DNA of 64,000 bases from Nitrospirota bacterium (GTDB taxonomy: Bacteria; Nitrospirota; UBA9217), in contig CAVUHW010000008.1 of the NCBI GenBank assembly GCA_963741205.1, forward strand, positions 1 through 64,000, written 5' to 3'. How positions within the stretch are numbered: position 1 is the stretch's first letter; every line of letters begins with the position of its first letter. The notes beneath the pieces are model-generated. The model did not search any database, had not been told where the DNA came from, and was given only the letters and a program-made list of their open reading frames with translations. Positions 27,556 to 47,573 of this stretch are shown here, in pieces. The position numbers and the translations under genes were made by a program.

Positions 27556-28245
27556 ATGACCCTACAGAAAGAAAGAGATATTGAGGCGCTCAAGGAACGG
27601 GTGCTCAAAATGGGGGGCTTTGTCGAAGATTCGATAAGGAAGTCCGTCACGGCCCTGGTCGAGCGGGACCGGAACCTGGCTATTGCGGTCATCGACGGCG
27701 ATGCCATTGTCAACAATTTCGACGTCGAGATCGAGGAAGAGTGCATCCGCTTTCTCGCCATCTGGCAACCGACGGGCAGCAATCTCCGTTTCATCACGAC
27801 CGCCATCAAGATCATCACCGATCTTGAACGGATGGGCGACCTGGCCGTCGACATATGCGAGCGCGCGATCGAGCTCAACGACGAGCCGCCGCTCAAGCCC
27901 TATATCGACATCCCGAGAATGGCAGAGGCGGCCCAGAAAATGCTCAAGGACAGCCTGGATGCATTCGTCGCCAGGGACTCTGATCTGGCCCTGAGCGTGT
28001 GCGCCGCGGACGATTATGTCGACAACCTGAACCATCAGATATTCAACGAACTGCTTGTCTATATGCTGAAGGACCCTAAGAACATCTCGCGAGCCGTGCG
28101 CCTCACCTACATTACGAAGTATCTGGAGCGCATCGCGGATCATGCCACCAACATCGCCGAAATGGTCGTGTATATGGTCAAAGGGAAGGTCATTCGTCAT
28201 ACGGCATGCGAGGCGCGGGGCGGGGAAGGCGGGACGTCGGGATGA
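27556..28245 (+). CDS. phoU: phosphate signalling complex protein PhoU
   Basis: Two PhoU repeats: DLERMGDLA and LERIADHATNIAE. Confidence 0.96.
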   Translation: MTLQKERDIEALKERVLKMGGFVEDSIRKSVTALVERDRNLAIAVIDGDAIVNNFDVEIEEECIRFLAIWQPTGSNLRFITTAIKIITDLERMGDLAVDICERAIELNDEPPLKPYIDIPRMAEAAQKMLKDSLDAFVARDSDLALSVCAADDYVDNLNHQIFNELLVYMLKDPKNISRAVRLTYITKYLERIADHATNIAEMVVYMVKGKVIRHTACEARGGEGGTSG

Positions 28246-28391
28246 GCTTTAATTGCCGCGAGGAAGAGCAGCCGAAAACGCTGTGTAAGGAAAATCGAAG
28301 CTAAAAGTCATGGAATCCCTGATTGTCTTTTGAATACTTCTATCATATGCTGGATATGAGGCTTGAATAAAGTTCGCGAGGTGCTGAATAC

Positions 28392-29491
28392 ATGCGCGAC
28401 CAGGGAAAGAATACGTTGCTCGTCGTCGATGACGACCCTTATGTTCTTGAATACGTTACAATACTATTGAAAGAGTTCGGCTATGCCGTCTACGGTTGTC
28501 GGAATGCCTGCGACGCCATGAACTTGCTAAAAGAGATCCCTATCGATGCGGTATTGACCGATATCAATATGCCGCAGGTCGGCGGCATCGAACTCCTGCG
28601 CGACATCCGCTCTTTTAATCAGCAGATTCCCGTGATCCTGATGACCGCTTTTGCGGAACTGGACGTCGCTGTCGACGCAATCAAGCAGGGCGCTTTTGAT
28701 TTAATTACAAAACCGTTTAAGCCCGATTATCTCTTGCACGCCGTGGAAAAGGCCTTACAATTCGTCAGGTTTACCCAGATGGAAAAAAAATATAAGGCCA
28801 TGCTTGAAGACATGGTTAAGAAGCGTACTCATGAGTTGGCTGACGCCCTGACGGCGGTGAGAAACATGAGCAGCGAACTCATCCGGCGTCTAACGAACGT
28901 GGCTGAATATCGCGACACGGACACGGGCGCTCACATCGGAAGGATCGGCCTGTACTCAAACAAAATTGCTGAAGCGCTGGACATGTCCGCCGATTTCGTT
29001 GAAACCATAACATTCGCAAGCCCCATGCACGACCTCGGCAACATCGGGATACCGGACAGCATTCTCCGGAAGCCCGGGGCCCTCACGCCGCGAAGAATTT
29101 GAAATCATGAAAAATCATACCTCGATCGGCGAAAAAATGCTTACCGGTTCTTCCTTTCCCGGCATTCAACTGGCCGCCTCCGTAGCGTTGAACCACCATG
29201 AACGATGGGACGGCAAGGGATACCCGAGCAGGACTCAAACACGATGAGATTCCGATTGAGGGCAGGATCGTCATGATCGCGGACAAGTACGATGCCCTTC
29301 GGTCCGAGCGGCCTTAAAAACCGGGATTTGACCATGCACAGGCATGCAAGATAATTACGGAGGGCAACGGAAGAACGATGTCTGAGCACTTTGATCCCAT
29401 GGTTTTACGGGCATTTAAAGAGATCGCTCCCACCTTTGATGAAATTTTCACGACTTTCCCGGATTCACATCCTCCCAAGATAATTTTTTAA
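28392..29491 (+). CDS. REC + HD-GYP c-di-GMP phosphodiesterase (RpfG-like; several indels)
   Basis: REC, '[11 protein letters not shown]', MHDLG, then [11 protein letters not shown] and HFDP in shifted frames. Confidence 0.88.
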
Positions 29492-30591
29492 ATGTTGTCT
29501 ACGGCTCTCTTGAGAGTGTCCGTCCCCGTGGGGAGTTCAATCGTAAAGACCGCCCCTCCGCCCTCGGCGTTCTCAAACCGGATAGAGCCGCCGTGCTCAG
29601 TGATGATTCCGTGGGAGATAGAGAGGCCCAGTCCCGTGCCGATGCCCACCGGTTTTGTGGTAAAGAAGGGGTCGAAGATCTTTGCCGAGATCCCCGGTGA
29701 GATCCCGGGTCCATTGTCGATCACCTGGATCCGGAAGCTCCGGCTCGCCCTGTCGGACCGCGTGACAAAACGAATCTTCCCGTCGGCGCGGCCCGCGTCG
29801 GCGATCGCCTGCTCCGCGTTCATGAGCAGGTTCAGGACGACCTGCTGTATCTGCTGCGCGTCCACAAAGACCGTCGCAGATGGGTCGTACTCCCGCTCGA
29901 TCCGAATGGAGTGCATCCTGAGCCAGTAGATCCGAAGATCGATGGCCCGGTCGATGAGGTCATTGATGGATTCCAGACTCCTCGCAGGCGTTCGCTGGCG
30001 CGAGAAGGTCAGGAGGTTGTCGACGATCTTCTTGCACCGCTCGGCGCTGACCAGAATCTTTTTGAGCTCGGTCTTGACGCCTTCATCGCCGACTTTCATG
30101 GAGAGCAGCTCGGTGTACGCGATGGTGCCGGTCAGCGGATTGTTGAGCTCGTGAGCCACTCCCGAAACCAGAAGCCCGATGGACGCGAGCTTCTCCGAAT
30201 GATAGAGCTGGTCCTTCAACCACTTTACCTCGGTGATGTCCTTCATCACGTGGATAGTGAGTGTGCGGTCTTCTTCCCGCAGCGGAAATATGCTGATCTG
30301 ATACATGTTATCGCCGATCTTTTTTTCGTAGGTGCTCGGCGTGCCGCTTGCCAGGACCTTCCCGAGCGCCTCGCCGTCGGCGGCGTCAAGCTTAAAGACC
30401 TCGGCGATTTTGTGTCCGACGATGTCCCGCGGGTGCATCCCGAGCGTCGACGCAAATGAGCTGTTCACCTTCACGAGCGTCAGCTCCGGGTCCAGGACGA
30501 AGAGGTAATCCGTGATGGCGTCGATGATCGACACCCAGTCCTTCTGGCTGCGCTTGACCTCTTCCGCGTTTTTGAGAATATTAGATTCCAT
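29488..30591 (-). CDS. PAS-domain NtrB-type histidine kinase (true start may be near 30649)
   Basis: PAS, SEKLASIG, AHELNNPL, DNGPG, FDPFFTTK, GTGLGL. Confidence 0.9.
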   Translation of the reverse strand: MESNILKNAEEVKRSQKDWVSIIDAITDYLFVLDPELTLVKVNSSFASTLGMHPRDIVGHKIAEVFKLDAADGEALGKVLASGTPSTYEKKIGDNMYQISIFPLREEDRTLTIHVMKDITEVKWLKDQLYHSEKLASIGLLVSGVAHELNNPLTGTIAYTELLSMKVGDEGVKTELKKILVSAERCKKIVDNLLTFSRQRTPARSLESINDLIDRAIDLRIYWLRMHSIRIEREYDPSATVFVDAQQIQQVVLNLLMNAEQAIADAGRADGKIRFVTRSDRASRSFRIQVIDNGPGISPGISAKIFDPFFTTKPVGIGTGLGLSISHGIITEHGGSIRFENAEGGGAVFTIELPTGTDTLKRAVDNI

Positions 30592-30697
30592 CTTTTTGGG
30601 AGACGAAAACGAGCTCCACCCTCCAGTTGCGCGCCCTGCAAACGTCCATGGTGATGAAGGATAAGCTCCCCTTCCTTCGGAAAAACTGCAGTGGTTT

Positions 30698-30726
30698 ATT
30701 ATATTACCCCCGATCATGGGATGCAA
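30698..30726 (-). promoter_or_regulatory. sigma-70 promoter for the PAS kinase
   Basis: Minus strand TTGCAT-N17-TATAAT. Confidence 0.6.
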
Positions 30727-30779
30727 GTTGATTTCCGCTGTTTCTTCGAGCGTGAGCTTGCCGGGCCACGAGCGGGTCG

Positions 30780-31382
30780 TCATCGACGATTAATATCGTG
30801 CCTTTTTGCATACCCGTTAACCAGCCTTTCCGTCAACAGCTCCGTCTCCCGGTCCGGGAGCACCTTCATGGTCTTCAGCTTCTCGATGCGTTTCAGCCAG
30901 CTCGTGGTCGCCTCCGGGTTGCCGCTCGCCGCGATGTTTTTGAGCAGTTCCCTATCGCGGTACGTTTCCCGCAAGCACTTACTCAGTTCCCTGTTGTCGG
31001 CGATGAGTCGCGCCCGCTGCCACGCTCGATCCGCGAGGATCGAGATCTCCTGGACCTTGAACGGCTTGGTCAGGTAATCGTAAGCGCCTTCTTTGATCGC
31101 CTCCAGCGTCGTGTCGAGGGTCCCGTGCGCCGTGAGAATGACGACCGCTATGTCGGGGTTGCTGCGGACCGAGTATTTGAGCACCTCAAGGCCGTCGGCG
31201 CCGGGCATCATGAGGTCGGTGAAGACGAGATGCATTTCTTCGATCCGGAGCCGGCGGACCGCCTCAAGGCCGTCGCTGACCGTCGTTACGGCATATCCTT
31301 CCCGGGCAAGGAGTGTCGAAATGACATCGCGCACGATGTCGTCGTCATCAGCAACGAGTATCTTGAAGCCTTTCTTGTCCAT
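30780..31382 (-). CDS. response regulator (REC + short helical tail)
   Basis: ILVADDD, TDLMMPG, TAHG, DYLTKPF. Confidence 0.9.
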   Translation of the reverse strand: MDKKGFKILVADDDDIVRDVISTLLAREGYAVTTVSDGLEAVRRLRIEEMHLVFTDLMMPGADGLEVLKYSVRSNPDIAVVILTAHGTLDTTLEAIKEGAYDYLTKPFKVQEISILADRAWQRARLIADNRELSKCLRETYRDRELLKNIAASGNPEATTSWLKRIEKLKTMKVLPDRETELLTERLVNGYAKRHDINRR

Positions 31383-32375: not shown

Positions 32376-34529
32376 TCAAATAGTGAGGGAGGTCCTCTGT
32401 TTTGCGTCGAGGATTCGCCGAACCACCGAGAGCAGGTACGGCGATTCAAACGGTTTCTTCAGAAACCCGTCGATTTCTCTTATCCCGTCCTTGTCAGCGA
32501 CATATTTCTCATGTCCCGACATGGCGATAATTTTTACTTCAGGCCTTATCTCTTTTATCTTCTTGATGAGCTCCTTGCCGTCCATCACCGGCATGGCCAT
32601 GTCCGTGATGACGAGCGCTATCTCCTGGGGTATTTTCTTGAAGATGTTGAGCGCCTCGGGGGAAACGCTTATGGCGAATGTCTTGTAGCCGTGACTGGTC
32701 AGGGCGTCCTGGATCGCGTCCAGCATCTCTTTCTCATCGTCGACAATAAGCAGCGTCTCGTCTCCGCCCAAGGAAGCGGATGCGTCTTTCGCCGGCGCGA
32801 GCGCGGCCGAGCGAGCGGGGAGGAATACCGTAAAGGTCGTCCCTTGACCGACCGTGCTCTGGACGGTGATATACCCATTATGCTCCTTGACCGTTCCATA
32901 CACCATGGACAAACCGAGCCCCGTGCCCTTTCCCCGCTCTTTCGTCGTGAAAAACGGCTCAAAAATCTTGTTCACGATATCATCGGGGATTCCCGTCCCG
33001 GTATCGGCGACCGTGAGCCGGACGTATTCTCCCGGCGCGATGTAGTTCGGGTAGTGCAGGCCCTCCTTGATATCGACGACAACCGTTTTGATAGTGATTT
33101 TTCCGCCCTTCGGCATGGCATCCCGCGCGTTGATGATGAGGTTCATGACGATCTGCTCGATATGGTTGGTATCACCCTGGATGTGCGGAATATGGCTGTC
33201 GAGCTCTACGTTTATTTCGATTTTTTTATCGATGACCCGCTCGAGGAGCTTGATCGTATCATACACCACATCGTTAAGATTGAGCGAGACGATCTCAAAC
33301 TTGCTCTTGCGCGCAAAGCCCAGCAGTTTTGAGATCATCCTTCCCGCCCTTCGCGAAGCGTCTTCGATCACGCCGAGGCTGTTTGTCGCCTTTACATCCA
33401 GTACAGAGGTCCTGCGAATGATCTCCGCGTGGCCGAGGATGGCAGTCAGAATGTTATTGAAATCATGGGCGATGCCGCCAGCGAGGACGCCGATGGAATC
33501 CATCTTCTGCGACTGGAACACGTGCTCCTGGAGTCTCTTTCTCTCCGTAATATCGCGGTAAAAGGATTGGATGAACGGTTCATCGCCGATGGTAATCGCT
33601 TTCGCGCTGATCTCGAGCTCGATGGGGGTGCCGTCCTTTTTATTATGTCTGATTTCGAACACGAGGGATTCGCCGCCTAAAATCTTGCGCATCCTCTCCG
33701 CCATTTTTTCTTTGTCACTGTCGCCTTCGAGCAGCTTTATATGCGCACCGACCAATGCATCCCTGCTGAAACCATGCATCTCGCATGCCTTCTCATTCGC
33801 GTTCACGATGACGCCGTTCCTGTCAAGGACGACGATGCCGTCTGTTGCGTTTTCAAAAAGCGACCGGTGCCACTGCTCGGACTTGTTCAGTTCTTTTGTT
33901 CGCTCTGAAACGAGATCTTCAAGTTGCAGAGAGTATTTTTCAAGTTGCTCTTTGTCTCTAGACAGGTCATATTCGAGGGAAAGTTTTTTAGTAAAAAGCT
34001 CATCATTATAATATCTCCATGAAATGGCGATGATCGCTGTTGCTATTAAAAAGACGTTACTGTTAATAAAGACAGGAACATTGGTAATATTATCAATAAT
34101 TAAGATGGGTAGCAGGTAAATTGAATATATTAAGGCACCCATGAATACAGTAAATTCAATGGAAAAAAGAGGAAGAAATCCGAGACAAAACATAAAAACA
34201 ATAATCATACCCACATAATAACTGGATTGATGGCCTCCAAAAGAAAGTATCATTAACTCGACCATAATTGATACAATAAGACCGGCAAAAACACTGGCAC
34301 TCAGTATAAGATAATGATTTGTCGTTAATCTATTTATAACAAATATGATTATGAACAAAAAAGCTGTTATTGATCTGTACATTAAGAATTTAGAGAAATT
34401 TTCAGGAGTGACAAAATAATCTAATACACTTAATGACATGATAACGACAGCTCCGGAAGCAATTGCGAACGAGCCCCAGTACTGGAGTAATTTGGTGGTT
34501 TCTTGTTCTATATACTGTTTTTTATTCAT
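32376..34529 (-). CDS. membrane hybrid sensor kinase (multi-TM input, PAS, HisKA, HATPase, REC)
   Basis: About six hydrophobic segments incl. 'GGHQSSYYVG'; PAS; AHDFNNIL; FEPFFTTK; GTGLGL; C-terminal REC. Confidence 0.93.
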   Translation of the reverse strand: MNKKQYIEQETTKLLQYWGSFAIASGAVVIMSLSVLDYFVTPENFSKFLMYRSITAFLFIIIFVINRLTTNHYLILSASVFAGLIVSIMVELMILSFGGHQSSYYVGMIIVFMFCLGFLPLFSIEFTVFMGALIYSIYLLPILIIDNITNVPVFINSNVFLIATAIIAISWRYYNDELFTKKLSLEYDLSRDKEQLEKYSLQLEDLVSERTKELNKSEQWHRSLFENATDGIVVLDRNGVIVNANEKACEMHGFSRDALVGAHIKLLEGDSDKEKMAERMRKILGGESLVFEIRHNKKDGTPIELEISAKAITIGDEPFIQSFYRDITERKRLQEHVFQSQKMDSIGVLAGGIAHDFNNILTAILGHAEIIRRTSVLDVKATNSLGVIEDASRRAGRMISKLLGFARKSKFEIVSLNLNDVVYDTIKLLERVIDKKIEINVELDSHIPHIQGDTNHIEQIVMNLIINARDAMPKGGKITIKTVVVDIKEGLHYPNYIAPGEYVRLTVADTGTGIPDDIVNKIFEPFFTTKERGKGTGLGLSMVYGTVKEHNGYITVQSTVGQGTTFTVFLPARSAALAPAKDASASLGGDETLLIVDDEKEMLDAIQDALTSHGYKTFAISVSPEALNIFKKIPQEIALVITDMAMPVMDGKELIKKIKEIRPEVKIIAMSGHEKYVADKDGIREIDGFLKKPFESPYLLSVVRRILDAKQRTSLTI

Positions 34530-34620
34530 AGTATGAATTATAGCACAATTGTCTTAAAAAACCCTATTCATATTGCTGCCTTCACGACAACTTCGGAGTG
34601 GGCAGCGGCAATCCGTTACT

Positions 34621-34767
34621 TTAAAAGGAAGTACAGTAGTTTACCGGCTTAGAATGTTGCTCGGCAAGAAGGATCTTCATCCCTGCCTTTGCAAGATAAC
34701 AACTGCATACCAGATCGATTACGCCAGCTATAATCACAGCATTATAATATTCCTTCATTTTTAACAT
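34621..34767 (-). pseudogene. N-terminal remnant of a phytoene-desaturase-like FAD oxidoreductase
   Basis: Manual translation MLKMKEYYNAVIIAGVIDLVCSCYLAKAGMKILLAEQHSKPVNYCTSF*: degenerate Rossmann GxGxxG...E...PGGY pattern. Confidence 0.7.
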
Positions 34768-35017
34768 TTACGATTTTTGATTCAATAAATTATTTACGAG
34801 CTCTACGGCCTCTTTCACAGTAGTAATTTTAGGGACATCCTCATCTCTCATTGAAACTTTAAATTTTTTTTCAATTGCAACGGTGATTTCAATCGCTTTA
34901 ATAGAGTCTACTTCCAAGATCCTCAAAAAAATTTTTTTCCGGAGTTATTTCATCTTCATCAAATCCCGATACATCGGATATTATTGCAATTATTGATTTT
35001 TCTACAGTATCCACCAT
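34768..35017 (-). CDS. acyl carrier protein (one indel; not in the ORF track)
   Basis: MVDTVEKSIIAIISDVSGFDEDEITPEKNFFEDL/EVDSIKAIEITVAIEKKFKVSMRDEDVPKITTVKEAVELV with DS phosphopantetheine site. Confidence 0.88.
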
Positions 35018-35036
35018 TGTTTACACTTTCATCTCC

Positions 35037-36256
35037 TTAGCCAGTATATTTTTTTAGAACCAGACAGGCATTATTGCCGCCAAACGCATACGAGTTATTT
35101 AATGCGATCGTGACTGCATGTTTTCTTGCATGATTGGGCACACAGTCAATATCACATTCAGGGTCAGGTGTTTCATAGTTGATAGTTGGAGGTATAATAT
35201 CATTTTTAATGGCAAGTGCGCAAGCGATTGCTTCGATTGCTGAAGCTGCGCCCATAGTGTGGCCGAGCATGGATTTAATGGAACTGCGGGAATCTTTTTA
35301 TAGTGAGTCCCAAAAATCTCTTTGATGGCAGCAGATTCGTTCCTATCATTCGTAAGCGTTCCTGTTCCGTGAGCACTTATATAATCTACATGCTCGACCG
35401 TAATCCCTGTCTCCTGAATTGCTTTTTTCATACATGCTGCGATACCTTCTGTGGAGGAAGTGGTCATGTGAAATGCATCACAACTAAGACCATACCCCAG
35501 AACCTCGGCGTAAATGTTACGCGTTTCTCTGTCAATGCACTTTCAAGAGGTTCAAGAACCACTATTCCTGCGCCTTCGGCCACCATCATCCCTTTTCTGT
35601 TTTTATCAAAAGGCTGGCACTTTTCAGGAGCACGGCAGAGAATTGATTAAACCCCGTGAAGGCAACCTTCGAAAGCGGATCTGCGCCGCCTGCCAGCACG
35701 ACATCTGCCCACCAAACCTGATTAAATCAAACCCATACCCTATTGCATAATTACCTGCTGCAGCAGGCAGTAGAAAACATCATATTGGACCGCAAATGCC
35801 AAATTCCTTGGCGATTGCAGGAGGGGTTGAGTGTGTCGGTACCTGGCATAATAAATCATTATGCTGAAATCGTCTCTTTCTTCGTGTACAATGATTTCAT
35901 TAACTTATTTCACAGGACTGCACTGATCCCATAGTCGTTCCAACACAGGTAGCCAACCTTCATGTTTGAAATTTCATCTTTTGATAGTTGGGCATCTCTA
36001 ATTGCAAGCTTTGAGCCGCAAGTGCCATCTGTGATGCTCGGCTAAGGGATTTAAGTTTATCCTCTCGGAATAAAGTGTTCAGCCTTGAAATTTTTAACCT
36101 CGTCCACCGTTATGAGTAAAATGATTTGTCGTATCAAAAGATGACACTGGGCTTATTCCTGATTTGCCTTTAAGAAGGCCATCCCAGAATTCTTCCTTAC
36201 CGATACCAATGGATGATATGATCCCAAGTCCTGTTATGACTACTCGTCTTATTCAT
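35037..36256 (-). CDS. beta-ketoacyl-ACP synthase (FabF-like KS; multiple indels)
   Basis: RVVITGLG start, TAC(A)AG active Cys, [21 protein letters not shown]. Confidence 0.9.
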
Positions 36257-36690
36257 CTCTTACACTAAATACAAGCTCTGCCTCTGCTATTTTTTTGTCG
36301 TCGACAAATGCCTCGCCCGACACATAGGCGCCGTTCGGCAGGGATTTGACATTTTCAACCTTTATCTTCAACTGGTCACCTGGTACCGCAGGGTGAAGAA
36401 ATCGCGCCTTGACCGATCCAAAATAATAAATCTGCTTTTTGTCTCCTTCTGTCTTTTTTTCTTACGTTGCAAAAAGGACGATGGCAGTCTGTGCCATTGC
36501 CTCGATTATGAAAGCACCGGGCATAACGGCCTTTTCAGGGAAATGGCCAAGGAAGACCATATCATTCCCTGAAATATTCTTCACTGCAACTGCGTGTTTC
36601 CCGGGTTCAATTTCCAAGACCCTGTCGATCATGATGAAGGGAAAACGCTGGGGAATGAGTCTTTTTTATTTCTTCGAAGTCAAGCTGCAT
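36249..36690 (-). CDS. fabZ: 3-hydroxyacyl-ACP dehydratase, FabZ-like (indels)
   Basis: [39 protein letters not shown]. Confidence 0.9.
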
Positions 36691-37934
36691 TCGTCACCTT
36701 TGTAGACGCCTACAACAACGGCTGTGTTCTGACCGTATGGGTCAGTTGAAGTTACGAGTACGTTCTTTACTGCTTTTTTGTCTCGCTTCATTCCGGGACA
36801 TAATCGAGATCGCACTCGGGGTCTCTTTCCTTATAGTTTACCGTGGGAGATATTAATCCATTCTGTAGTGCACCTACCCCAGCTGATAGGGAAAGAGCGC
36901 CGGAAGCTGAAAACGACTCGCCTACCATGGATTTTATCGAACTCACCGGGTACCGTGTAGGCATGCTTTCCGAAAATCTCTTTTATCACCTTTGTCTCCA
37001 TCCGGTCAAGACCGCTAGTCGAATTGGCACAGGCACAGATATAGTCTATGTCTTCCGGATTGAGAGAGGCGTCTTTTAATGCAAGGATAATGGCGTTCTT
37101 TAATCCTTGTCCTGCATGATTGAAGTGGTTTCCGGCAGAAGGATCAAAAGCATTGCCATATCCCAGAACCCTTGCAAGAATGGTGGCGCCTCTGTTTACA
37201 TGCATGATCCTCATCTTCAAGTACCAGCACTGCCGCGCCTTCAGAAAGCATTATTCCGTTCCTTCTTGCATCAAAGGGGCAGCAAATAGGCTCTGAGCTG
37301 TCCGTCCCCGATAAAAAACCAAGCTTATGAAAGCCCAAAAAAGTCTCCTCGCAAAGCTCTTCAACACCGCCTGCAAGTACAACATTCGCCCTGTTTAATC
37401 GTATGAAATCAGCAGCATAGGAGACGGCATCAAGGCTGGCGCAGAAGCCTGTGGATATGGTGGTATTGAACCCTTTGATCTTGATCGGATGGACACATGG
37501 CTTGCTGGAGAATTTATCACGGTGTTCGGAAAGTGCGAGGGATTGACAGAGCCGCGGACCTTCGATAAGGCCAGAGCGGTCAAATTGGGAGATGCTGTGG
37601 AGACTGCCGAAGGTCGTGCCGATAGAGACGCCTGTAGAATGGGCGTTTTCGTCGGTGATCTCGAGCCTGGCGTCATCAATGGCCAGTTTAGCGGCGGAGC
37701 ATATCAACCTTGTGCTTCTGTCGAGGTCCCGCAGCCCTTTCTTGCCGAGCAGAGAAAGAGGATCAAAGTCGACTATCTCGCCGGCGCGATGGACTTGAAA
37801 GGGCGTTGTATCGAAGAGGGATATTTCTCCAGAATCCCGTTTTCCCCTGGAATAGACCCGTCCCAGTAGTTATCCCTGCCGATACCGATGGGCGATAAGA
37901 CCCCTATGCCTGAGATTACGACCTTTCTCTGCAT
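36666..37934 (-). CDS. ketosynthase-like chain-length factor (likely non-catalytic KS; indels)
   Basis: KS fold (KVVISGIG, FPNTVINSPAS, PFDARRNG..LSEGAA) but STGFCAS, CANST and DPYGQN replace TAC, HGTGT and FGG. Confidence 0.8.
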
Positions 37935-37940
37935 CGTCGT

Positions 37941-38694
37941 TTAGATCCCCAATCCTCCGTCTATCTGTATTACTTGTCCCGTGATGTACTGCGATGCATC
38001 GCTCGCCAGGAATACGACAGCCTGCGCCACTTCATCCGCGGATGCCGAATCTTCCAAGCGGGATCATTTTCATGGCTTTTTCCCTGAAGGTGTCGCTGAA
38101 GGCCGCTGTCATATCAGTGTCCACAAAACCGGGAGCGACGGCATTGACTCTGATGTTATACGGCGCCACTTCTTTTGCCAGCGACTTGGTAAAGCCGATT
38201 ACTCCGGCCTTTGCCGCCGCGTAATTGACCTGGCCGGGGAGGGGATGGATGCCGCTGACCGACGAGATATTGACAATGATTCCGCTCTTTTGCTTGAGAA
38301 AGGTGATGATGCATGCGCGGGTTGTATTGAAAACGCCGGTGAGATCGGTATCTATTACGTCGGACCAATCCTCTTTGCTCATCATCATAAGGGACTTGTC
38401 CCGCGTTATGCCGGCGTTATTGACGAGGATATCGAGCCGTCCGAATTCCTTTTTTACCTCTTCAATGAGCGTCTTTGCGCCCTCAAAATCCCTCACATCC
38501 AGTTGAAAAGGTGTTGCCCTCCTGCCCATTCCCTGAACTTCTTTTGCCAGCGATTCCGCTGCAGAAGGGTTTCTCGTATACGTGAATGCGCAGTCAGCGC
38601 CTTCACGACACAGGGCAAGAACGATCGAGCGGCCTATGCCCCTCGTCCCACCCGTTACGATCGCCACCTTATTGAGAAATAAATTTTTCTCCAT
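37941..38694 (-). CDS. fabG: 3-oxoacyl-ACP reductase (indel near 38040)
   Basis: TGGTRGIG, NNAGITRD, YAAAK, APGF; YITGQVIQIDGG in shifted frame. Confidence 0.93.
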
Positions 38695-39004
38695 GCTTTA
38701 AGCGTTCAATTTAACATAGCCTTGAACAGTAATCAAGAGTAATCACGTCAGGGGATGGGAATTACACGATGGGATGAGCAAAATCTTGCAAGCTGCATCG
38801 TTGCGTAGTGAATCACTGGATGCATAAAAAGATCACTACAGCGGGTGCAGGATTAGCACAGATAGTTTGATCGCAGCATGACCATATACGTGCGCAGGGT
38901 CAATTATGCGTACTTCCGGATTACCGCCTTGAGTGGTCTGGCTGGCTCAGGGTTATGGGGTCGAATGAGGGCAGGGTGTCATTAGCAAAGTTCAGTGCAT
39001 TCTC

Positions 39005-40056
39005 TTAATGCTTCGTTGCAATATAAAAAATTATCGAACCCGATTTTACTCGGGTCATTGTAATGCGCTGCTGGGGATTTCAGCGCGACGGAACAATCTT
39101 TCAAAATCATCATCAGTACGCTGCAAGAAACCATCCCAGTCAGCGAACCAGTGATAAAGTTGCGACCGGTAACGGTTTGCATCCTTGAAAGCCGCTATGA
39201 GCTTTCCGCCAGGGTTAAGCAGCATATAGAGGGTACTGAGCAGTTTCACGAGGAAATCATCGGCCAAGTAATCGAAGTATCCAACACTGTAAATGATATC
39301 CTGCATGCCGAATGCAGACACGGCGGTCTCGTAGTCGAACATTCTGAGGGCATTATATTGAATGAATTCTGCACGGTCTGCCGAGAGGCCGGCATATGAT
39401 AAACGATTGAGAGCGAAATCAAGGGCGTCGGAGTCTAAATCGATGCATTTGAAGTGGGCCCCGGACTTTTCAATTTCTGGTACTATTTCATGCAGCTCAC
39501 GGCATGAGCCGCAGGCGATGTCGAGGACTTTCGGATATTGTCTGTTAATCAGCTCTGTTTTCAGCAGCTCAGCCAGTTTTCGCATTCTTTCTCGCACCCC
39601 TACCGCAAGGGTTGCAGAAAGCACATATTTATCGAGATAATATCCTATCCCCTCCGACATCGGCGTATTTCTGTACATGAATTCTATTGTTTTATAATCT
39701 CCCTGGTATCCTTGAGGCCAAGTCCGGACCCGATTTGCACCGTAGCTTTTGGATACAATAGGTTCCGTCTTATCACGAAAGGCCACCTGTGCCGCCTTGA
39801 TTGCAGCCTTGTCATTTACCAACTTCTCAAATTGCTCGCATACCTGGAGCATCGAGTCATTCAGGACCGTAAGCTCCTGAAAGATGCTCTCGGGATCTCC
39901 TTCCTTGCTTATGCACCTTCGTTCAATGTCCCTGAGCGTATCCATATAGTGATCGGTCGTCGCTTCAAGGTAGCTGATATACTTCTCGCTCTCCTCGCTG
40001 ACGAGCAACGCATTTTCATTGATTTCTTCGTTATCATAACCCCAAGAATTTTGCAT
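39005..40056 (-). CDS. class I SAM-dependent methyltransferase, PhcB-like (indel near 39060)
   Basis: VLDIACGS, IDLD, YSVGYFDYL, LNPGG; N-terminal 'WPQGYQGDY...Y.N...VRER' resembles the GYAGD motif I recall from PhcB-like enzymes. Confidence 0.8.
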
Positions 40057-40407: not shown

Positions 40408-40944
40408 TCATTTTCTCTTGTAAAGTCCGATCAACTCGTTTTGAGCAACAATGTGCCCCTTCATTGCTTTTTCAAGCGCAGCCTTTGTTGTGTTCGCGCC
40501 GGGAGTGAGAGTAGCGTCGAGCGCATAAAGTTTAAAGTAATATCGGTGAGTGCCGGATGGGGGGCAGGGGCCGCCATAGTTGCGGTTCCTGAAGTCATTA
40601 ATGCCCTGTTGGGCCCCTGAAGGAACGGAATTTTCCTTGATAGTAGTAACCATGGGATCAATGTTCCAGACCACCCAATGCACCCACGTTCCCGCCGGCG
40701 CGTCCGGATCGTCGACGATCAGGGCAAGCGACTTTGCGTTTGCCGGAACGTTTTCGATGGCAAGGGCGGGGTTTACGTCCGCTCCATCGCAGGTAAACTT
40801 GGCCGGAATGTGCTCATTGTGTTTAAAGTTTGGGCTTGATATCTTCATCGTACTCATTTCACTAGCCTCCGTTCGAATGGGATGAAATGCGAGGGTGATG
40901 AATACAAACAAAAATGCCGTACTCCTCGTTATCCGCACGCACAA
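40408..40944 (-). CDS. YbhB/YbcL family (PEBP/RKIP-like) protein
   Basis: DDPDAP, WVHWVVWNI, YGGPCPP, HRYYFKLYALD. Confidence 0.95.
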   Translation of the reverse strand: MCVRITRSTAFLFVFITLAFHPIRTEASEMSTMKISSPNFKHNEHIPAKFTCDGADVNPALAIENVPANAKSLALIVDDPDAPAGTWVHWVVWNIDPMVTTIKENSVPSGAQQGINDFRNRNYGGPCPPSGTHRYYFKLYALDATLTPGANTTKAALEKAMKGHIVAQNELIGLYKRK

Positions 40945-41203
40945 TCCTCCGCTCAGGTTTTTCTATTAAGAATGATACCACAACTTCACGGCGCATGAGG
41001 ACCGTTAACCGGCCGCGCTGAAAATGAGGAGGGGATCGCAGGAAAACAATAAAACGAGTATACTAAATGGTATCCCGGCGCGTTCAACCATGCTGTCGTC
41101 CGCCGTGTCTCATGGTTATGCCGTCCTGCGGCGCGGAAGAGGGGGTGAAAAAAAGACAGTCCCGCGGACATTAAATTTATCCGGTTGCGAAAGGAGAGCA
41201 TCG

Positions 41204-41611
41204 ATGAGAAAAGCAAATGGAGGGAGAAGCAAGAGTATCAGATGGTCTGTTGTTTTGGTCGCGACCGCCGGTCTGGTCCTGTGGGCTTCCGCCGATATCT
41301 TCGCACAGGGGCGCGGGCCGTGCGCTGAAGACGCGGCCAAATACTGCAAGGATGTTCAGCCTGGCGGAGGCCGCATGGCACAGTGCCTGAAAGAGCACGA
41401 GAACGAGCTGTCCGCCGCCTGCAAGGAGCACATCGCGCAGATGAAGCAGAAGGGAAAGGAGATCCATGAGGCCTGCCAGGACGATGCCTTGAAGCTCTGC
41501 AAGGATGTGAAGCCGGGCGGTGGTAGGATCCTCAAGTGTCTCAAGGAACATGAGAGCGAGCTTTCCCCCGCGTGCAAGGAAAAGCTGCCGAAGGGTAGAA
41601 AGGGACAGTAA
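41204..41611 (+). CDS. secreted cysteine-rich repeat protein (two C-x-x-D-x-x-x-x-C repeats)
   Basis: Signal peptide; CAEDAAKYCKDVQPGGGRMAQCLKEHENELSAACK repeated. Confidence 0.85.
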   Translation: MRKANGGRSKSIRWSVVLVATAGLVLWASADIFAQGRGPCAEDAAKYCKDVQPGGGRMAQCLKEHENELSAACKEHIAQMKQKGKEIHEACQDDALKLCKDVKPGGGRILKCLKEHESELSPACKEKLPKGRKGQ

Positions 41612-41701
41612 CGGCGCACTGTAGCCGGGCAGGGGAGATCGGTGTGATCATTGAGGGGCGGAGTGAATCAGGACCCAAGTGATTGAGATTGACAAAAGGC
41701 G

Positions 41702-41741
41702 TGCAAATGCAGGTCTGGATATCTCCGGGCCTGCATTTGTA
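41702..41741. terminator. hairpin between convergent genes
   Basis: TGCAAATGCAGGTCTGGA-TATC-TCCGGGCCTGCATTTGTA. Confidence 0.7.
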
Positions 41742-41752
41742 GACGGCCGCCG

Positions 41753-41962
41753 TTACGTTGATGTCTTTACCACATGCGCTGCCTTCGGGCCTTTGGGGCT
41801 ATCGACAACCTCGAACGTCACTTCGTCGCCCTCGGCCAAGGTCTTGTAGCCTTCACTCTCGATCTCGCTGTAGTGCACGAAGACATCTCCGCCGTCTTCC
41901 TTTGCAATGAACCCGAAGCCTTTGGACTCATTGAACCATTTGACTTTTCCTCTTGTTGCCAT
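41753..41962 (-). CDS. cspA: cold-shock protein
   Basis: [22 protein letters not shown]. Confidence 0.95.
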
Positions 41963-42245
41963 GCTACGCGCCTCCTTTCCGTGGAATTGAAGATTACGGA
42001 AATGCCGCAACAAAAAAGCCGCGAAGCTACAGAGTCTTCGCGGCCTTTCGTACTGCAAAAAACTTCCGAACTTCTAATAATATGTTCACACTCCGGCCCT
42101 ATGAAGTCAAGGGCTAATTGACGCTGTGCAGTGCCCCTCCGCAACAGATATCAATGCATGCGCTCCATGGCCTTCTGCTTCATCCTCCTCCTCTTGTCCC
42201 GGATCAAACGACAGTTGTTCGCACAAAACGGGCGGATTTGTTTCC

Positions 42246-42275
42246 TTGACAAGTGAACAAATGTTCACCTATAAT
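42246..42275 (+). promoter_or_regulatory. consensus sigma-70 promoter containing an SOS (GAAC-N4-GTTC) box
   Basis: TTGACA 42246-42251, palindrome GTGAAC-AAAT-GTTCAC 42253-42268, TATAAT 42270-42275. Confidence 0.9.
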
Positions 42276-42331
42276 ATGTTCATCCGGAAAGCGCGCCTAA
42301 AGGTCCGATCCGGCAAGAAAAGAGGCGTGCC

Positions 42332-42877
42332 ATGCAAACAAGTACCGTTCACCTGAATGTAGTTCATCGCCTTGAAGACCTTGTCTTGCCTGCTGCAGGA
42401 GGTAGCGGCACGGGGGCTGTCCCGATCGACGAGCCCCACGCATACCGGGTCCTCGGTCTCGTGGAGGCGGGGTTTCCGAGCCCGGCCGAGGAGGAGATGC
42501 GGGACACGCTGTCCCTCGATGAATTCCTCGTTTCGAACCCGGAAGCATCCTTCCTGCTCAAGGTCTCCGGAGATTCCATGACCGGCGCCGGCATACTCCC
42601 CGGTGATTTGGTCATCGTGGACCGCGGTCAGACCGCGAAAAGCGGCGACATCGTGATCGCCGAGGTGGACGGCGAGTGGACCATGAAGTTCCTGAAAAAG
42701 AGCGGCGATACGGTCTACCTCGTGCCAGCGAACCCGAAGTACAAACCGATACGACCGCAGCGCGAACTCAGGATCACCGGCGTGGTGACGGCGGTGGTGA
42801 GGAAGTACCGGCAGGGACAAGGGGCGGGGGGCAAGGGCCAGGGGAGCAGGGTCGCCGCGCAGACGGACGGCGAGTAA
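42332..42877 (+). CDS. umuD: UmuD/LexA-like S24 peptidase without DNA-binding domain
   Basis: AGFPSPA cleavage site, GDSM Ser, TMK Lys; no HTH. Confidence 0.8.
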   Translation: MQTSTVHLNVVHRLEDLVLPAAGGSGTGAVPIDEPHAYRVLGLVEAGFPSPAEEEMRDTLSLDEFLVSNPEASFLLKVSGDSMTGAGILPGDLVIVDRGQTAKSGDIVIAEVDGEWTMKFLKKSGDTVYLVPANPKYKPIRPQRELRITGVVTAVVRKYRQGQGAGGKGQGSRVAAQTDGE

Positions 42878-42937
42878 GAAGGAAGGTCTCTCGTGTCGCC
42901 GAAGACATGCCTTGCGCTAAAAAACGGGCCGTGCTAG

Positions 42938-42958
42938 ATGCTATCATAATGAAAGCAT
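42938..42958. promoter_or_regulatory. toxin-antitoxin operator palindrome
   Basis: ATGCTATCAT-A-ATGAAAGCAT; TGCTATCA half-site as known for FitAB. Confidence 0.7.
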
Positions 42959-42971
42959 GGGGAGGTCTTGT

Positions 42972-43202
42972 ATGCCCAACATTCTCATCCGTGACGTTTC
43001 CCAGAAGGCCGTCAATCAATTGAAAGCGCGGGCCAAACGGCACAACCGCTCGCTTCAGGCAGAGGTGAAGCGCCTCGTCGAGGAAACCGCGAAGACGACC
43101 GGGGAGGGCGCCCTTCTCCGCGCGCGAAAAATCCGCGCAAGCTTCGGCAAGACGACGTTTTCCGACAGCGCCGAACTGCTCCGCGAGGACCGAAACCGGT
43201 GA
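42972..43202 (+). CDS. FitA-like ribbon-helix-helix antitoxin
   Basis: MPNILIRDV...LKARAKRHNRSLQAEV...DSAELLREDR; overlaps the PIN toxin gene. Confidence 0.88.
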   Translation: MPNILIRDVSQKAVNQLKARAKRHNRSLQAEVKRLVEETAKTTGEGALLRARKIRASFGKTTFSDSAELLREDRNR

Positions 43203-43642
43203 CCCGTTTCGTTGTCGATGCCAGCGTGGCGATCAAATGGTATCTGCCGGAACCGCACAGCGCCGACGCCGACCGGCTGTTGGGCGGCGGTTTTCAACTT
43301 CTCGCCCCGGACCTGCTTGTCACCGAAGCGGGAAATATTCTCTGGAAGCGGGTCATGAGGTCGGAGCTGACCGTCCGAAAGGCGCAGGTCATCATGCGCG
43401 CCCTGGTAGCCCTGCCAATGACGCTGCACCCTGCAAGCGTTCTCGCGGAAAACGCAATGACCGTTGCCTGCGGCCTGAAGCGGTCCTTTTATGACAGCTT
43501 GTATCTGGCGCTCGCCCTGACAGCGGATTGCCGGCTGGTGACCGCCGACAGAAAGCTGTTCGATGCCGTACGAGACGCAGCGCCGGTCAGGAAGCACATT
43601 CTCTGGATAGAAGATGTGCCGGAAAAGAATGACCCTGATTGA
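43199..43642 (+). CDS. vapC: VapC PIN-domain toxin
   Basis: VVDASVAIKW, E.GN, YDSLYLALA, LVTAD. Confidence 0.92.
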   Translation: MTRFVVDASVAIKWYLPEPHSADADRLLGGGFQLLAPDLLVTEAGNILWKRVMRSELTVRKAQVIMRALVALPMTLHPASVLAENAMTVACGLKRSFYDSLYLALALTADCRLVTADRKLFDAVRDAAPVRKHILWIEDVPEKNDPD

Positions 43643-43847
43643 CGTAATTAGGTCAGTGCGATGCCAGAGAAATCCGGATCGGAATGGACACCACCTCCGC
43701 CGCGATACGCTGCGGACGCCCTTGTTCCCCTGCGAATCGAAGCCGCGGATATGCCGATGCGGTTCTACAGGTAGATGCATGCAAATATATGTTGATGCCG
43801 GCTCCTAACGGCTCAATAACTGGTTGGGGAAAAACATAAGGACCATC

Positions 43848-44378
43848 ATGCTGTTCAAAAAAGCCATCATATTTGGAATCAGAGTTGTCATATTTGCTGC
43901 GATAATCGCTGTGATAATCGCTGCTGCTATTCCTGTGCTTCGCAAGCACAGCCCAGGCTTCAACTGGATATTTTCACCCACGGATCTTTATAAGCCGCTA
44001 TCAGTGAGCACTATCGATCTTGGGAAGGAAGGCCAGAGCTATCAGATAAGCTTCGAGAATAAGTACCCTGGGTTGCACTGGTTTGCCATCCAGGTTGCAA
44101 ACCCGCGATCAACTACCACAGCCTATGAAGGCGATTTTGTTCTTCGGCTGGAAATACTGCATGATCATAAGCCAGTGCTCTCAAAGCTTATACACGGGCC
44201 AAGCGACCCATATGGGAGCCAGAAAAGCGGCTTTGCCGTCCTCTGGTATCGAGCACCACTTGACCTGCCGCTTCGAGAACCTCTTGAGGCGGAGATAACG
44301 GTTGTGAAGGCAGATCAGGCGTTTGTAGCGAAGCATGGCATGCCCGAGCTGGTCGTAAGAAAGCTTTCGGATGAGTAA
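43848..44378 (+). CDS. hypothetical membrane-anchored protein (cassette-like)
   Basis: N-terminal TM segment; lower GC; flanked by attC-like remnants. Confidence 0.7.
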   Translation: MLFKKAIIFGIRVVIFAAIIAVIIAAAIPVLRKHSPGFNWIFSPTDLYKPLSVSTIDLGKEGQSYQISFENKYPGLHWFAIQVANPRSTTTAYEGDFVLRLEILHDHKPVLSKLIHGPSDPYGSQKSGFAVLWYRAPLDLPLREPLEAEITVVKADQAFVAKHGMPELVVRKLSDE

Positions 44379-44469
44379 ATGAAAAGCTCGTAACGAGGCG
44401 CCTCAGCTAAAGACGAATAATGGCTTTTTCTACAGACTCGTTATACGTTCAAAACAGGATGAACAATCT

Positions 44470-45150
44470 ATGAAGATCAAAGCGATTATTTTCGGGGCTA
44501 CGGGCATGGTGGGGGAGGGCGTTCTCCACGTGGCACTCGGACATCGGGACGTAGAATCCGTTCTGGTCATCGGCAGAAAATCGTGCAATGTGAAACACCC
44601 CAAACTGAAGGAATTGATCCACAACGATTTCTACGACTATTCAGCCATTGAAAAGGAGCTTGCAGGCTATAACGCATGCTTCTTCTGTCTCGGCGTCTCT
44701 TCCGTGGGGATGAGTGAAAAAGCCTACACCCGCGTGACGTACGACCTGACGATGGAGGCTGCTAAAACCTTGTCAAGACTCAACCCTGATATGACCTTCT
44801 GCTATGTATCCGGTGCCGGGACCGACAGCACTGAGAAGGGCCGCATCATGTGGGCGCGCGTGAAGGGCAGGGTGGAAAATCGCCTGAAGGATTTTCCGTT
44901 CAAGTCCGTGTACCTGTTCAGGCCCGGATTTATCAAGCCCATCAAGGGCCTCAGGCATGCGCATACAATCTCCGAGGCGGTTGGAATGATGTATCCCCTC
45001 TTAAAAGTCATAAGCCCGAAGTATGTATGCACACTGGAAGATGTAGGCCTTGCAATGATACAGGCGGCCAAAGCAAGTCCTTCAAGACGGATCATCGAGA
45101 ACAAGGATATCGCCCTATTAGCCGGAACCGGCACAAGCAGCAAGACCTAA
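44470..45150 (+). CDS. NAD(P)-binding epimerase/oxidoreductase (TIP30/CC3-like)
   Basis: GATGMVG, CFFCLG, YVSGAG, WARVKG..E, FRPG. Confidence 0.9.
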   Translation: MKIKAIIFGATGMVGEGVLHVALGHRDVESVLVIGRKSCNVKHPKLKELIHNDFYDYSAIEKELAGYNACFFCLGVSSVGMSEKAYTRVTYDLTMEAAKTLSRLNPDMTFCYVSGAGTDSTEKGRIMWARVKGRVENRLKDFPFKSVYLFRPGFIKPIKGLRHAHTISEAVGMMYPLLKVISPKYVCTLEDVGLAMIQAAKASPSRRIIENKDIALLAGTGTSSKT

Positions 45151-45282
45151 CTGACAATACTCAGAGCACCCTTAATTGTACCTGGGTTCTGACAAACCGG
45201 ATATAACGGATGTACCTTCCTTCGAGAGGGTCGCTGAAAACCGCGTCCCTCAGGCGAAGCGTTATTACCAAGAGAGCTGATA

Positions 45283-45607
45283 ATGAAAAAGTGTCCTTTC
45301 TGCGCTGAAGATATTCAAGACGACGCTAAAAAGTGTAAACACTGCGGTGAATTTCTGGATGCCGCCCCCCCCACGTTTTGCAGAAAAAAAGATCCCATGG
45401 TATTTCCGAAAAACCTTTATTGTCATCGCAGTCTGCTCTGTGGGGCCTCTGGCGTTGCCCCTGATTTGGTGGCGTCCACAAACGACGCGGGGATGGAAGA
45501 TCGGACTCACCATAGGAATCCTTGTTCTCAGTTGGATGTTGTTCCAAACCACGATGGAATCCATTCGTACCATCAAGGAGTATTACACGTTCATTAAAGG
45601 ACTCTGA
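45283..45607 (+). CDS. zinc-ribbon membrane protein (indel near 45370)
   Basis: CPFCAEDIQDDAKKCKHCGE followed by two TM segments in the shifted frame. Confidence 0.8.
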
Positions 45608-45663
45608 AATTATCTCCAGTAGTCGGCCATTTGAAAATAACGGCAAATCACGAGGATTGAGAC

Positions 45664-46026
45664 ATGGGACTGGTACACAAAAGAGACATGAAAAAAGCGG
45701 TGCGGCACGGACAGGCGCAGGAGGAGCAGCCGGTGCGTTTGAGCAAAACGCAGAAGAAAAAAGCGGCGCTGTCCTTGCAGGACCTGGGTGAACGACTTGT
45801 GAAGTTGTCGAACGAGCAGCTCAAACAAAGCGATCTGCCCGAGGACGTCCTGGCTGCCGTGAAAGCGGCAAAGACCATTACAAAACACCATCCCCTTAGC
45901 CGGCAGATACAGTATATCGGCTCGTTGATGAGGAAATACGATCCTGCGCCTGTCAGGGAATTCCTCGACGCCTTGGGGCAGGGGAACCGCCGGCAGACGC
46001 GAAGGTTAAGCAAAACGAATAAATGA
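45664..46026 (+). CDS. yjgA: YjgA/DarP (DUF615) ribosome-associated protein, C-terminally short
   Basis: SKTQKKK...LQDLGERLVKL...RQIQYIGSLMR. Confidence 0.8.
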   Translation: MGLVHKRDMKKAVRHGQAQEEQPVRLSKTQKKKAALSLQDLGERLVKLSNEQLKQSDLPEDVLAAVKAAKTITKHHPLSRQIQYIGSLMRKYDPAPVREFLDALGQGNRRQTRRLSKTNK

Positions 46027-46175
46027 CGCAATGCGAATGGATTCCCGCTTTCGCGGTGAATGACAGAATCGGTCCCGGCAACGAGTGTATGAAGGCTATC
46101 AGAAGAGCGCTCAAACCGGAGCAATCCAGCGGGCGGCTGATATAGCATGGATCTCGTCATCAAAAAAGGATAGAC

Positions 46176-46421
46176 ATGAGCGACCAGCAACATAAAGATC
46201 CCCTTCACGGTGTCACGCTGGAAATGATGCTTACCCAGCTGGTGGAGCATCATGGATGGGAGAAAATGGGCCAGATCATCAATATAAGATGCTTTAATAA
46301 TGACCCGAGCATCAAGTCCAGCCTGCAGTTCCTGAGGAAAACCCCTTGGGCGAGAACAAAGGTCGAAGAGCTGTATCTGAAGTACAGAAGGAATGCTTTG
46401 AAAATGCCGAAACGCAGTTAA
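46176..46421 (+). CDS. VF530-family (DUF2132) DNA-binding protein
   Basis: DPLHGVTLE...GWE...CF...[22 protein letters not shown]. Confidence 0.9.
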
Positions 46422-47489: not shown

Positions 47490-47573
47490 GAACTCCAAAC
47501 AGTGGTCAAACAGTCTCCCTCAATGATATGGCGATGCCCGCTGACCTTTTTTATATTAATTCCGGAGGTATTC

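Follow-up and report, generated by a model that had tools for sequence, protein, structure and literature searches.

A candidate Phc-type module for signal synthesis and reception in a Nitrospirota genome of Thermodesulfovibrionia type

We analyzed a window of 64,000 nt (the whole stretch of Nitrospirota DNA introduced above) and focused on an eight-gene minus-strand run at 32376-40056 that encodes a methyltransferase, a fatty-acid-synthase-like cassette and a hybrid sensor kinase. We propose, with moderate confidence and from sequence comparisons, that this locus of a Thermodesulfovibrionia-type Nitrospirota genome encodes a putative signal synthase and its receptor, together forming a Phc-type module. 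Sequence and profile comparisons place the methyltransferase in the PhcB family, assign a PhcS-type membrane input domain to the kinase, and indicate that the two genes travel together in related genomes. The host genome, which comes from a wetland (4.27 Mb in 50 contigs, 84.5% complete), has as its closest relatives metagenome-assembled genomes labelled Nitrospirota, Thermodesulfovibrionales or Thermodesulfovibrionia. All eight genes described in an earlier note on this DNA were confirmed. They are listed below in the order of transcription; related loci are designated by L numbers.

39005..40056, minus strand: S-adenosylmethionine (SAM) methyltransferase (MT), PhcB-like class I; open frame as assembled 39055-40056, 333 aa; Pfam Methyltransf_12/20/25
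37941..38694, minus strand: FabG-type 3-oxoacyl-acyl carrier protein (ACP) reductase (KR); adh_short E 7e-66, TIGR01830 E 3e-77; frameshift at 38042
~36693..37934, minus strand: KSa, a ketosynthase (KS)-like protein without the Cys-His-His triad, chain-length-factor-like partner; ketoacyl-synt domain fragments; 9 indel events
36249..36690, minus strand: FabZ-type 3-hydroxyacyl-ACP dehydratase (DH); NF000582/TIGR01750
35037..36256, minus strand: KSb, catalytic FabF-like ketosynthase; Cys-His-His in relatives; 16 indel events
34768..35017, minus strand: ACP; matches ACP families, with PP-binding in L002; frameshift at 34917
34557..34767, minus strand: remnant of a CrtI/amine-oxidase-family flavin adenine dinucleotide (FAD) enzyme, first ~70 codons; the match to a gene for 473 aa covers no more than its initial ~230 nt
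32376..34529, minus strand: hybrid sensor kinase (HK), 717 aa, intact; multi-transmembrane input (borderline MASE8), PAS, HisKA, HATPase, REC

Intact relatives encode proteins of 350 (MT), 255-258 (FabG), 411 (KS-like), 146 (FabZ), 402-404 (KS), 82-88 (ACP), 470-473 (flavoenzyme) and 719-724 aa (kinase). The ACP serine motif DSI is legible in a shifted frame of the window.

In the proposed mechanism, a dedicated type II system (KSb and KSa, KR, DH and an ACP of its own, without a recognized enoyl reductase at the locus) would build a hydroxy or unsaturated acyl chain, which the PhcB-like MT would convert into a hydrophobic methyl ester. The ester would partition into membranes and be read by the multi-transmembrane input of HK, and this sensing would start a phosphorelay. 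Where MT and HK occur without the cassette, housekeeping fatty-acid synthesis would supply the acyl substrate, as it presumably does for Ralstonia PhcB. We infer the product, the methyl-ester release and the sensing by the kinase.

A PhcB-family methyltransferase and a kinase with a PhcS-type input domain

The reference for these comparisons was a Ralstonia syzygii record, which was found by means of an rpoD primer from PMC11960443; the phcS start primer from that paper had no match in the genome collection. A 21-sequence MT profile (A1) led to a single 464-aa open reading frame (ORF) in the R. syzygii genome (E 8.5e-24 and 5.7e-15 for two stretches). This ORF is directly followed by a 442-aa HisKA/HATPase kinase whose phospho-accepting HisKA histidine, as judged by alignment with the window kinase, is residue 230. 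Because PMC11960443 places the PhcS histidine at residue 230, the two ORFs were taken to be phcB-phcS.

The window MT aligned to the Ralstonia PhcB ORF with 25% identity over 252 aa (BLASTP, E 3e-15), and hhalign gave a probability of 99.3% (E 2.9e-20) over 248 columns reaching the C-terminus. When the PhcB ORF was searched in the host genome, the window MT was the sole match (E 1e-11), making the two proteins reciprocal best hits. The earlier note had likened the MT motif PQGYQGDY to PhcB. This held in so far as WPQGYQGDY of the window MT aligns to KPLGYAGDY of PhcB, with PxGYxGDY shared, but the exact octapeptide is not a Ralstonia motif: when back-translated it had 57 matches in the genome collection, nearly all in Nitrospirota and none in Ralstonia. 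Matches in Burkholderiales and Campylobacterota were rejected as chance, since they fall in a wax-ester-synthase-like ORF and an unrelated frame. A search for close MT homologues returned 765 matches; among the best 120 of these, several carry the JGI name 'extracellular factor (EF) 3-hydroxypalmitic acid methyl ester biosynthesis protein', which we take to be KEGG's name for PhcB.

Other resources returned more general assignments. NCBIfam matches of MT were weak (CpaM 27 bits, UbiE 20 bits, BioC 16 bits), and the Protein Atlas matches were confined to unnamed Methyltransf_20/25 clusters from several phyla. Pfam PF12147 matched the MT protein in hmmscan and had no match in a six-frame search of the host genome, and this result was not used. 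An AlphaFold model of the L002 MT orthologue (pLDDT 93, pTM 0.88) has three long N-terminal helices followed by a Rossmann-type core. Foldseek comparison of this model with the PDB returned only generic class I methyltransferases (TM-scores 0.4-0.5), and a sequence search of solved structures with MT gave four weak matches, likewise generic methyltransferases. From the reciprocal sequence and profile matches we conclude that MT belongs to the PhcB family, as the earlier note had supposed.

The same note had named PhcS as a possible counterpart of the kinase, and this was borne out for the input domain. HK residues 23-206 aligned to residues 26-208 of the PhcS ORF with 25% identity over 186 aa (BLASTP, E 3e-11), and a 16-sequence input-domain profile (A3) matched PhcS 1-210 with a probability of 97.4% (hhalign, E 9.4e-12). 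The motifs LDY..P and SxYYAG are common to both. PhcS 1-210 in turn had one match in the host genome, the window HK input domain (E 6.7e-10), so that this relationship is also reciprocal. The transmitter core of HK aligned to PhcS as well (30% identity, E 2e-24), a similarity that is generic. The input domain of the window HK scored 24.5 bits against MASE8 (PF20968) and that of the L002 orthologue 28.0 bits, compared with a gathering cut-off of 26.2; the Ralstonia PhcS ORF had no match to MASE8 at E <= 0.01. In L026, a Desulfobacterales record, a hybrid kinase is headed by the same input domain (hhalign probability 97.8%, E 7.4e-13). We conclude from these alignments that HK carries a PhcS-type membrane input domain.

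The family to which MT belongs is broad: a threshold of E <= 1e-3 gives 5881 representative clusters, and one of E <= 1e-30 still gives 1004. A look-up of names for 10 long family representatives yielded no PhcB name. Domain scanning of 27 long representatives, chosen by length, revealed an N-terminal PilZ domain in 21 (one of which also has REC), a cNMP-binding domain in 3, REC alone in 1 and no Pfam domain in 2. Similar N-terminal fusions occur among the related loci, namely MT with PilZ in L022 and MT with a cNMP-binding domain in L026 (9383-10897). An MT N-terminal extension of about 75-100 residues is present in L012, L014, L015, L016, L019 and L022, with Pfam PilZ confirmed in L022. On Enterobacter ludwigii plasmids, a type I polyketide synthase (PKS) has a domain of the MT family at its C-terminus (26.5% identity, with 95% of the query covered). 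Taken together, the PKS fusion and the PilZ, cNMP and REC fusions suggest that the MT family may act on carrier-bound chains and be gated by signals. One of the plasmids carrying the E. ludwigii fusion is the IncFII conjugative plasmid NZ_CP134637.1 (5886-9023; L110), and a genome that shares the window's genus has an MT domain within an open frame of 2521 aa (G028:C266:14324-15211).

Linkage of the methyltransferase and kinase genes and the cassette between them

Related loci were confirmed in 25 of 37 candidate stretches, and 21 of them could be assessed for linkage, L003, L009, L011 and L020 ending too soon after MT to judge. HK lies downstream of MT on the same strand in 18 of the 21. The kinase is immediately upstream of MT in one more (L026), and the available DNA of the other two (L014 and L018) contains no kinase. 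The cassette is present in 16 of the 21 loci, whereas MT stands beside the kinase with nothing between them in five (L017, L021, L022, L023 and L026).

A wider sample comprised 64 genomes of the order, of which 44 contain MT (all 14 in the window's genus, and 23 of 32 high-quality genomes) and 51 contain the input domain. Fragments were merged, and MT and input-domain matches were paired by contig, strand and distance (downstream within 9 kb). By this measure 38 of 53 MT loci have an input domain downstream, with gaps of 52-1195 nt in 14 pairs and of 4.3-7.0 kb, the size of the cassette, in 24. At least 5 of the 15 unlinked MT loci lie within 5 kb of a contig end on the downstream side, and one is in the 2521-aa frame. 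Three genomes (G024, G028 and G038) have two MT-kinase loci each, one adjacent and one with a cassette-sized gap. As the two samples overlap and the genomes are kin, these counts describe a clade and are not independent trials.

The earlier note's expectation of synteny was therefore borne out in part: the kinase is kept with MT (18/21 and 38/53), but the cassette is absent from 5/21 and 14/38. The conserved core is MT plus HK, and the fab cassette is an optional insert. These sequence matches show MT and HK as companions across Nitrospirota, and the pair occurs in two further records, one with the label Deltaproteobacteria and one from Desulfobacterales.

Some individual loci differ in other respects. 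G003 and G020 also have two MT loci; both in G003 adjoin a kinase, and one in G020 is unlinked. Stop codons interrupt the six-frame match to MT and/or the input domain in G047:C12:128482-135795, G048:C5:470740-477933 and G050:C13:545783-553231, which could mean that the system is decaying there or that these assemblies contain errors like those considered below for the window. In the cassette-free L021, the record labelled Deltaproteobacteria, a REC-AraC response regulator gene (8340-9089, plus strand) is directly upstream of MT, and beside it is a gene for a START/polyketide-cyclase-fold (lipid-binding) protein (7768-8187, minus strand).

The cassette is intact in seven relatives (L002, L004, L006, L007, L015, L019 and L025), in which the roles of the two ketosynthases can be read. 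The earlier note had designated the first KS noncatalytic and the second catalytic, correctly as judged from four aligned relatives. KSb has the Cys-His-His triad with the motifs STACAAGN, HGTGT and GHTMG in all four, and these motifs are also legible in the KSb fragments of the window. In KSa the triad columns are occupied by Phe, Cys (or Gly) and Glu in all four, with a Cys one column after the Phe. Both KS proteins scored best as FabF (424 and 351 bits; equivalog cut-off 494) and gave 223 and 142 bits against the AmcF (cispentacin) model, whose cut-off is 325; they fall below every curated cut-off except that of one subfamily model, which KSb passed. The cassette FabZ passed a FabZ model. 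The flavoenzyme of relatives reached 150 bits against a CrtI-family model with a cut-off of 238.

Discrete ACP, FabG and FabZ proteins are thus encoded, and FabI, FabK, FabL, FabV or any other enoyl reductase was not found within the locus. The CrtI-family flavoenzyme present in many relatives could reduce or desaturate. The composition of the cassette varies: five loci have no FabG, and four (L005, L012, L013 and L016) have no flavoenzyme. Because other KS genes are found elsewhere in the host genome, on contigs C30 and C31, the KS set of the cassette is an extra one.

Condition of the cassette in this assembly and competing explanations

The earlier note had mentioned indels in this region, and they proved more damaging than it implied. 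With the intact relative L002 as reference (MT 88% identical), the stretch from FabG to the flavoenzyme remnant aligned at 86.6% DNA identity with 39 gap openings in 4225 columns. The frame is broken by 37 of these, their lengths not being multiples of three, and the window has nothing that corresponds to about 1.18 kb of the flavoenzyme gene (L002 15617-16792). Indel events number 3 in FabG, 9 in KSa, 3 in FabZ, 16 in KSb, 2 in ACP and 6 in the remnant. The 33 events between FabG and ACP comprise 22 insertions and 11 deletions, few of them in homopolymer runs as judged by eye, and an insertion/deletion pair 10 nt apart in FabZ results in an internal stop. MT contains a single gap, a 1-nt deletion at 39061 that shifts and cuts its last 17 codons (native stop 39005-39007); a terminator-like hairpin at 39037-39056 was rejected, as it falls inside those codons once the deletion is allowed for. 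HK is open throughout, with only in-frame or compensated gaps relative to L002. ORF cover in the 4-kb bin beginning at 34001 is 0.33, compared with a genome median of 0.88 and a 1% quantile of 0.38. Counts of gaps other than multiples of three in the flanking blocks were unusable as an error background because blastn introduces compensating gap pairs at 70-76% identity.

Substitutions have a different distribution. Mismatches to L002 in the cassette are concentrated at third codon positions, as they are in MT and HK, and the five frame-corrected cassette proteins are 82.5-95% identical to those of L002 (FabZ 95%), with synonymous changes exceeding nonsynonymous ones. Of 106 nonsynonymous codon differences in KSa, FabZ, KSb and ACP, none creates a stop. 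Comparison of the relatives and the window substitutions therefore shows the signature expected of a cassette under purifying selection. The flavoenzyme remnant contains deletions only (1, 1, 1, 3, 10 and 4 nt), 18 nonsynonymous and 10 synonymous changes, and one substitution stop; loss of this gene looks real. Two other FabF-like genes of the host genome (C30:53264-54407 and C31:55427-56657) are each split by one frameshift, which points to background indel errors in the assembly, and such errors may explain why a genome in only 50 contigs is 84% complete. In no sequencing run were more than 6% of the words sampled from the stretch present. Three runs from two studies yielded contigs of relatives at about 90% likeness, and wherever these contigs span a window indel, the indel is missing. 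The indels are thus private to this assembly, whether real or not.

These observations bear on the state of the locus, whatever its function. It is possible, if doubtful, that the cassette is truly pseudogenized and that the host is reverting to a cassette-free MT-HK pair like those of L017 and L021-L023. The existence of such pairs in nature fits this explanation, as do ORF cover at 34-38 kb in the lowest ~1% of the genome's 4-kb bins, the concentration of 33 indel events in the five genes between an open MT and an open HK, and the degraded flavoenzyme, with its 1.18-kb loss, multi-base deletions and surplus of nonsynonymous changes. However, decay would not account for the lack of any excess of first- and second-position changes, nor for the absence of nonsense substitutions noted above. 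Insertions outnumber deletions two to one and lie mostly outside homopolymers, both of which are unusual for bacterial gene decay. The frameshifts in the other KS genes, the low completeness of a genome in so few contigs, and the absence of every checkable indel from the relatives' contigs also argue against it. On balance, the small cassette indels are probably a local assembly or sequencing error.

With respect to function, MT and the cassette might instead make a structural or protective membrane lipid or a polyene pigment (for example, a methyl-esterified polyene), in which case HK would monitor the membrane or lipid state and regulate the pathway by feedback instead of sensing a quorum. 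A KS/CLF-like pair (CLF, chain-length factor) with KR and DH and no enoyl reductase is a polyene-forming type II make-up, a CrtI-family enzyme is present in many relatives, the seventh-ranked NCBIfam match of FabG is the flexirubin reductase FlxB (215 bits, cut-off 340), and the PilZ and cNMP fusions would also suit second-messenger-controlled envelope modification. We consider this explanation unlikely: 14 of the 38 linked loci have no cassette, so that the pair works without a dedicated chain; MT and HK are both homologous to a proven signal synthase/receptor pair; and the two MT-HK loci in G024, G028 and G038 are more easily explained as separate signalling channels. A BioC-like priming role, in which MT would act first by methylating the free carboxyl of malonyl-ACP (or another dicarboxyl-ACP) to give a dicarboxylate monomethyl ester as product, appears very improbable. 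It would suit the position of MT at the head of the cassette, the absence of a starter-unit enzyme from the locus and the weak NCBIfam match to the BioC model TIGR02072 (16.3 bits, E 0.0067). That score is far under the cut-off of 184.95 bits, which was not reached, and far weaker than the PhcB match; moreover, MT-HK pairs occur without any cassette, and the C-terminal location of the MT domain in the Enterobacter PKS fits a late or terminal step.

Several points weigh against a Phc-type signalling module itself. Identity is only ~25% both to PhcB and to the PhcS input, and the architecture of HK is unlike that of PhcS in that PAS and REC are added. More than 1000 family representatives outscore PhcB against the MT profile, which means that common ancestry is no proof of common chemistry; the MT family is very large, PhcB is placed only distantly in it, and what the sequences support is homology, not orthology. 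The Foldseek result for the predicted model provides no clue to the substrate of MT. In the order, 53 of 91 input-domain loci are not beside MT, so the domain is not dedicated to MT partners. No thioesterase or acyltransferase that could free the chain is found within the locus, no PhcR-like gene follows HK, and conservation between loci does not extend to the genes downstream (no search was made for PhcA or PhcQ). Against the assembly-error reading of the indels, the indel density in the cassette, 8.8 per kb, is roughly ten times that of the two other KS genes. The earlier note's self-contained synthase/receptor pair is thus supported by the homology and linkage of MT and HK but not by the cassette, whose frames are broken in the sequence as given. 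The Phc-type module remains our preferred reading, at the moderate confidence stated above.

Surroundings, significance and comparison with known systems

Genes adjacent to the eight-gene run include the following.

40408..40944, minus strand: PEBP-family protein (phosphatidylethanolamine-binding protein fold), directly upstream of MT; Pfam PBP E 2e-43
30780-31382, minus strand: REC protein with a ~90-aa tail of no known family
29488-30783, minus strand: PAS histidine kinase; recurs in one related locus, L010, at 63% identity, the sole recurring downstream gene
28392-29102, plus strand: second REC protein
27556-28245, plus strand: PhoU

The PEBP gene also precedes MT in L002, L003, L006 and L024 (68-72% identity), and signalling genes are abundant downstream of HK (27556-31382). 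About 16 kb (40900-56600) separate the PEBP gene from the next block syntenic with L002, which has nothing comparable; synteny resumes at window position 56656 onward, corresponding to L002 8294 downward. This stretch contains an S24 (LexA-like) peptidase gene (42332-42877) and several ORFs without a Pfam match, as well as a 195-aa ORF at 41024-41611 (plus strand) with a match to the eukaryote-typical Pfam family Cys_rich_FGFR (E 4e-13, two stretches) and a weak one to CHCH. The low G+C content at 34-36 kb (0.39) is common to L002, indicating that it is native to the cassette genes and no sign of foreign DNA. Adjacent ORF pairs at 57.9-59.4 and 61.4-63.2 kb were considered as split genes and rejected, since L002 has the same two-gene layout.

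Phc signalling has so far been reported from Betaproteobacteria only. One paper describes the phc cluster as restricted to Betaproteobacteria within the Proteobacteria surveyed. Our full-text literature searches found no paper linking PhcB to Nitrospirota or describing such a system in that phylum, and none that joins Thermodesulfovibrio, quorum sensing and methyltransferase. The locus suggests that lipid methyl-ester signalling exists well outside Betaproteobacteria. If so, uncultured sulfate-reducing Nitrospirota of wetlands and groundwater would gain a means of chemical communication, none being known there according to these searches. The carbon chain of the signal would be specified by genes between synthase and receptor, which would ease product prediction and heterologous reconstitution. 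The large uncharacterized MT family, in which PilZ fusions are frequent, would acquire a function open to testing, and PhcS-type input domains would become a recognizable family of lipid-ester sensors.

A broader reading can be offered only tentatively, and we lean against it at present. PhcB-family MTs and PhcS/MASE8-type kinases might together form a widespread unrecognized class of lipid methyl-ester signalling in anaerobic Nitrospirota and Desulfobacterota. Signal output would be gated through PilZ, cNMP-binding and REC domains (by c-di-GMP, cNMP and phosphorylation, respectively), the inserted KS/CLF cassette would provide a private, possibly polyene, signal, and genomes with two loci would run two channels.

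Among known systems, the Phc system of Ralstonia (PhcB/PhcS) is like the window locus in having a homologous SAM methyltransferase, including the helical N-terminal part and PxGYxGDY, a homologous multi-transmembrane input domain, and the gene order MT then kinase. It differs in phylum and, at ~25% identity, in sequence. An N-terminal extension of ~150 aa, to which no Pfam family matches, is present in the Ralstonia MT and absent from the window MT, whereas the window HK has an extra PAS domain and a C-terminal receiver. Unlike Ralstonia, the window has no PhcR-like gene after HK and no conserved genes downstream, and most Nitrospirota loci have a private KS/CLF-like/KR/DH/ACP cassette between MT and the kinase.

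That cassette resembles the highly reducing type II PKSs with KS/CLF pairs, such as those for aryl polyenes and ishigamide and the AmcF/AmcG type of cispentacin, in its discrete catalytic KS, triad-less KS paralogue, KR, DH and ACP and in lacking a recognized enoyl reductase in the locus. In contrast to those systems, both KS proteins score best as FabF, and the AmcF cut-off is not reached. Classical CLFs have Gln at the Cys column, whereas KSa has Phe there and Cys one position later. Unlike the aryl polyene type, the locus has no aryl starter, ammonia-lyase, LolA or MMPL genes near it. BioC is similar in being a class I SAM methyltransferase that targets a carboxyl group within type II fatty-acid synthesis, but the window MT, at 16 bits against a cut-off of 185, is not a member of that family.

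In CqsA/CqsS, LqsA/LqsS and RpfF/RpfC, the synthase of a small hydrophobic fatty-acid-derived signal adjoins a kinase that has a polytopic input and no large periplasmic domain. The window locus follows the same logic of a synthase beside a multi-transmembrane kinase, which is a likeness of gene arrangement; CqsA, LqsA and RpfF (pyridoxal phosphate-dependent aminotransferase and crotonase types) are unrelated to MT.

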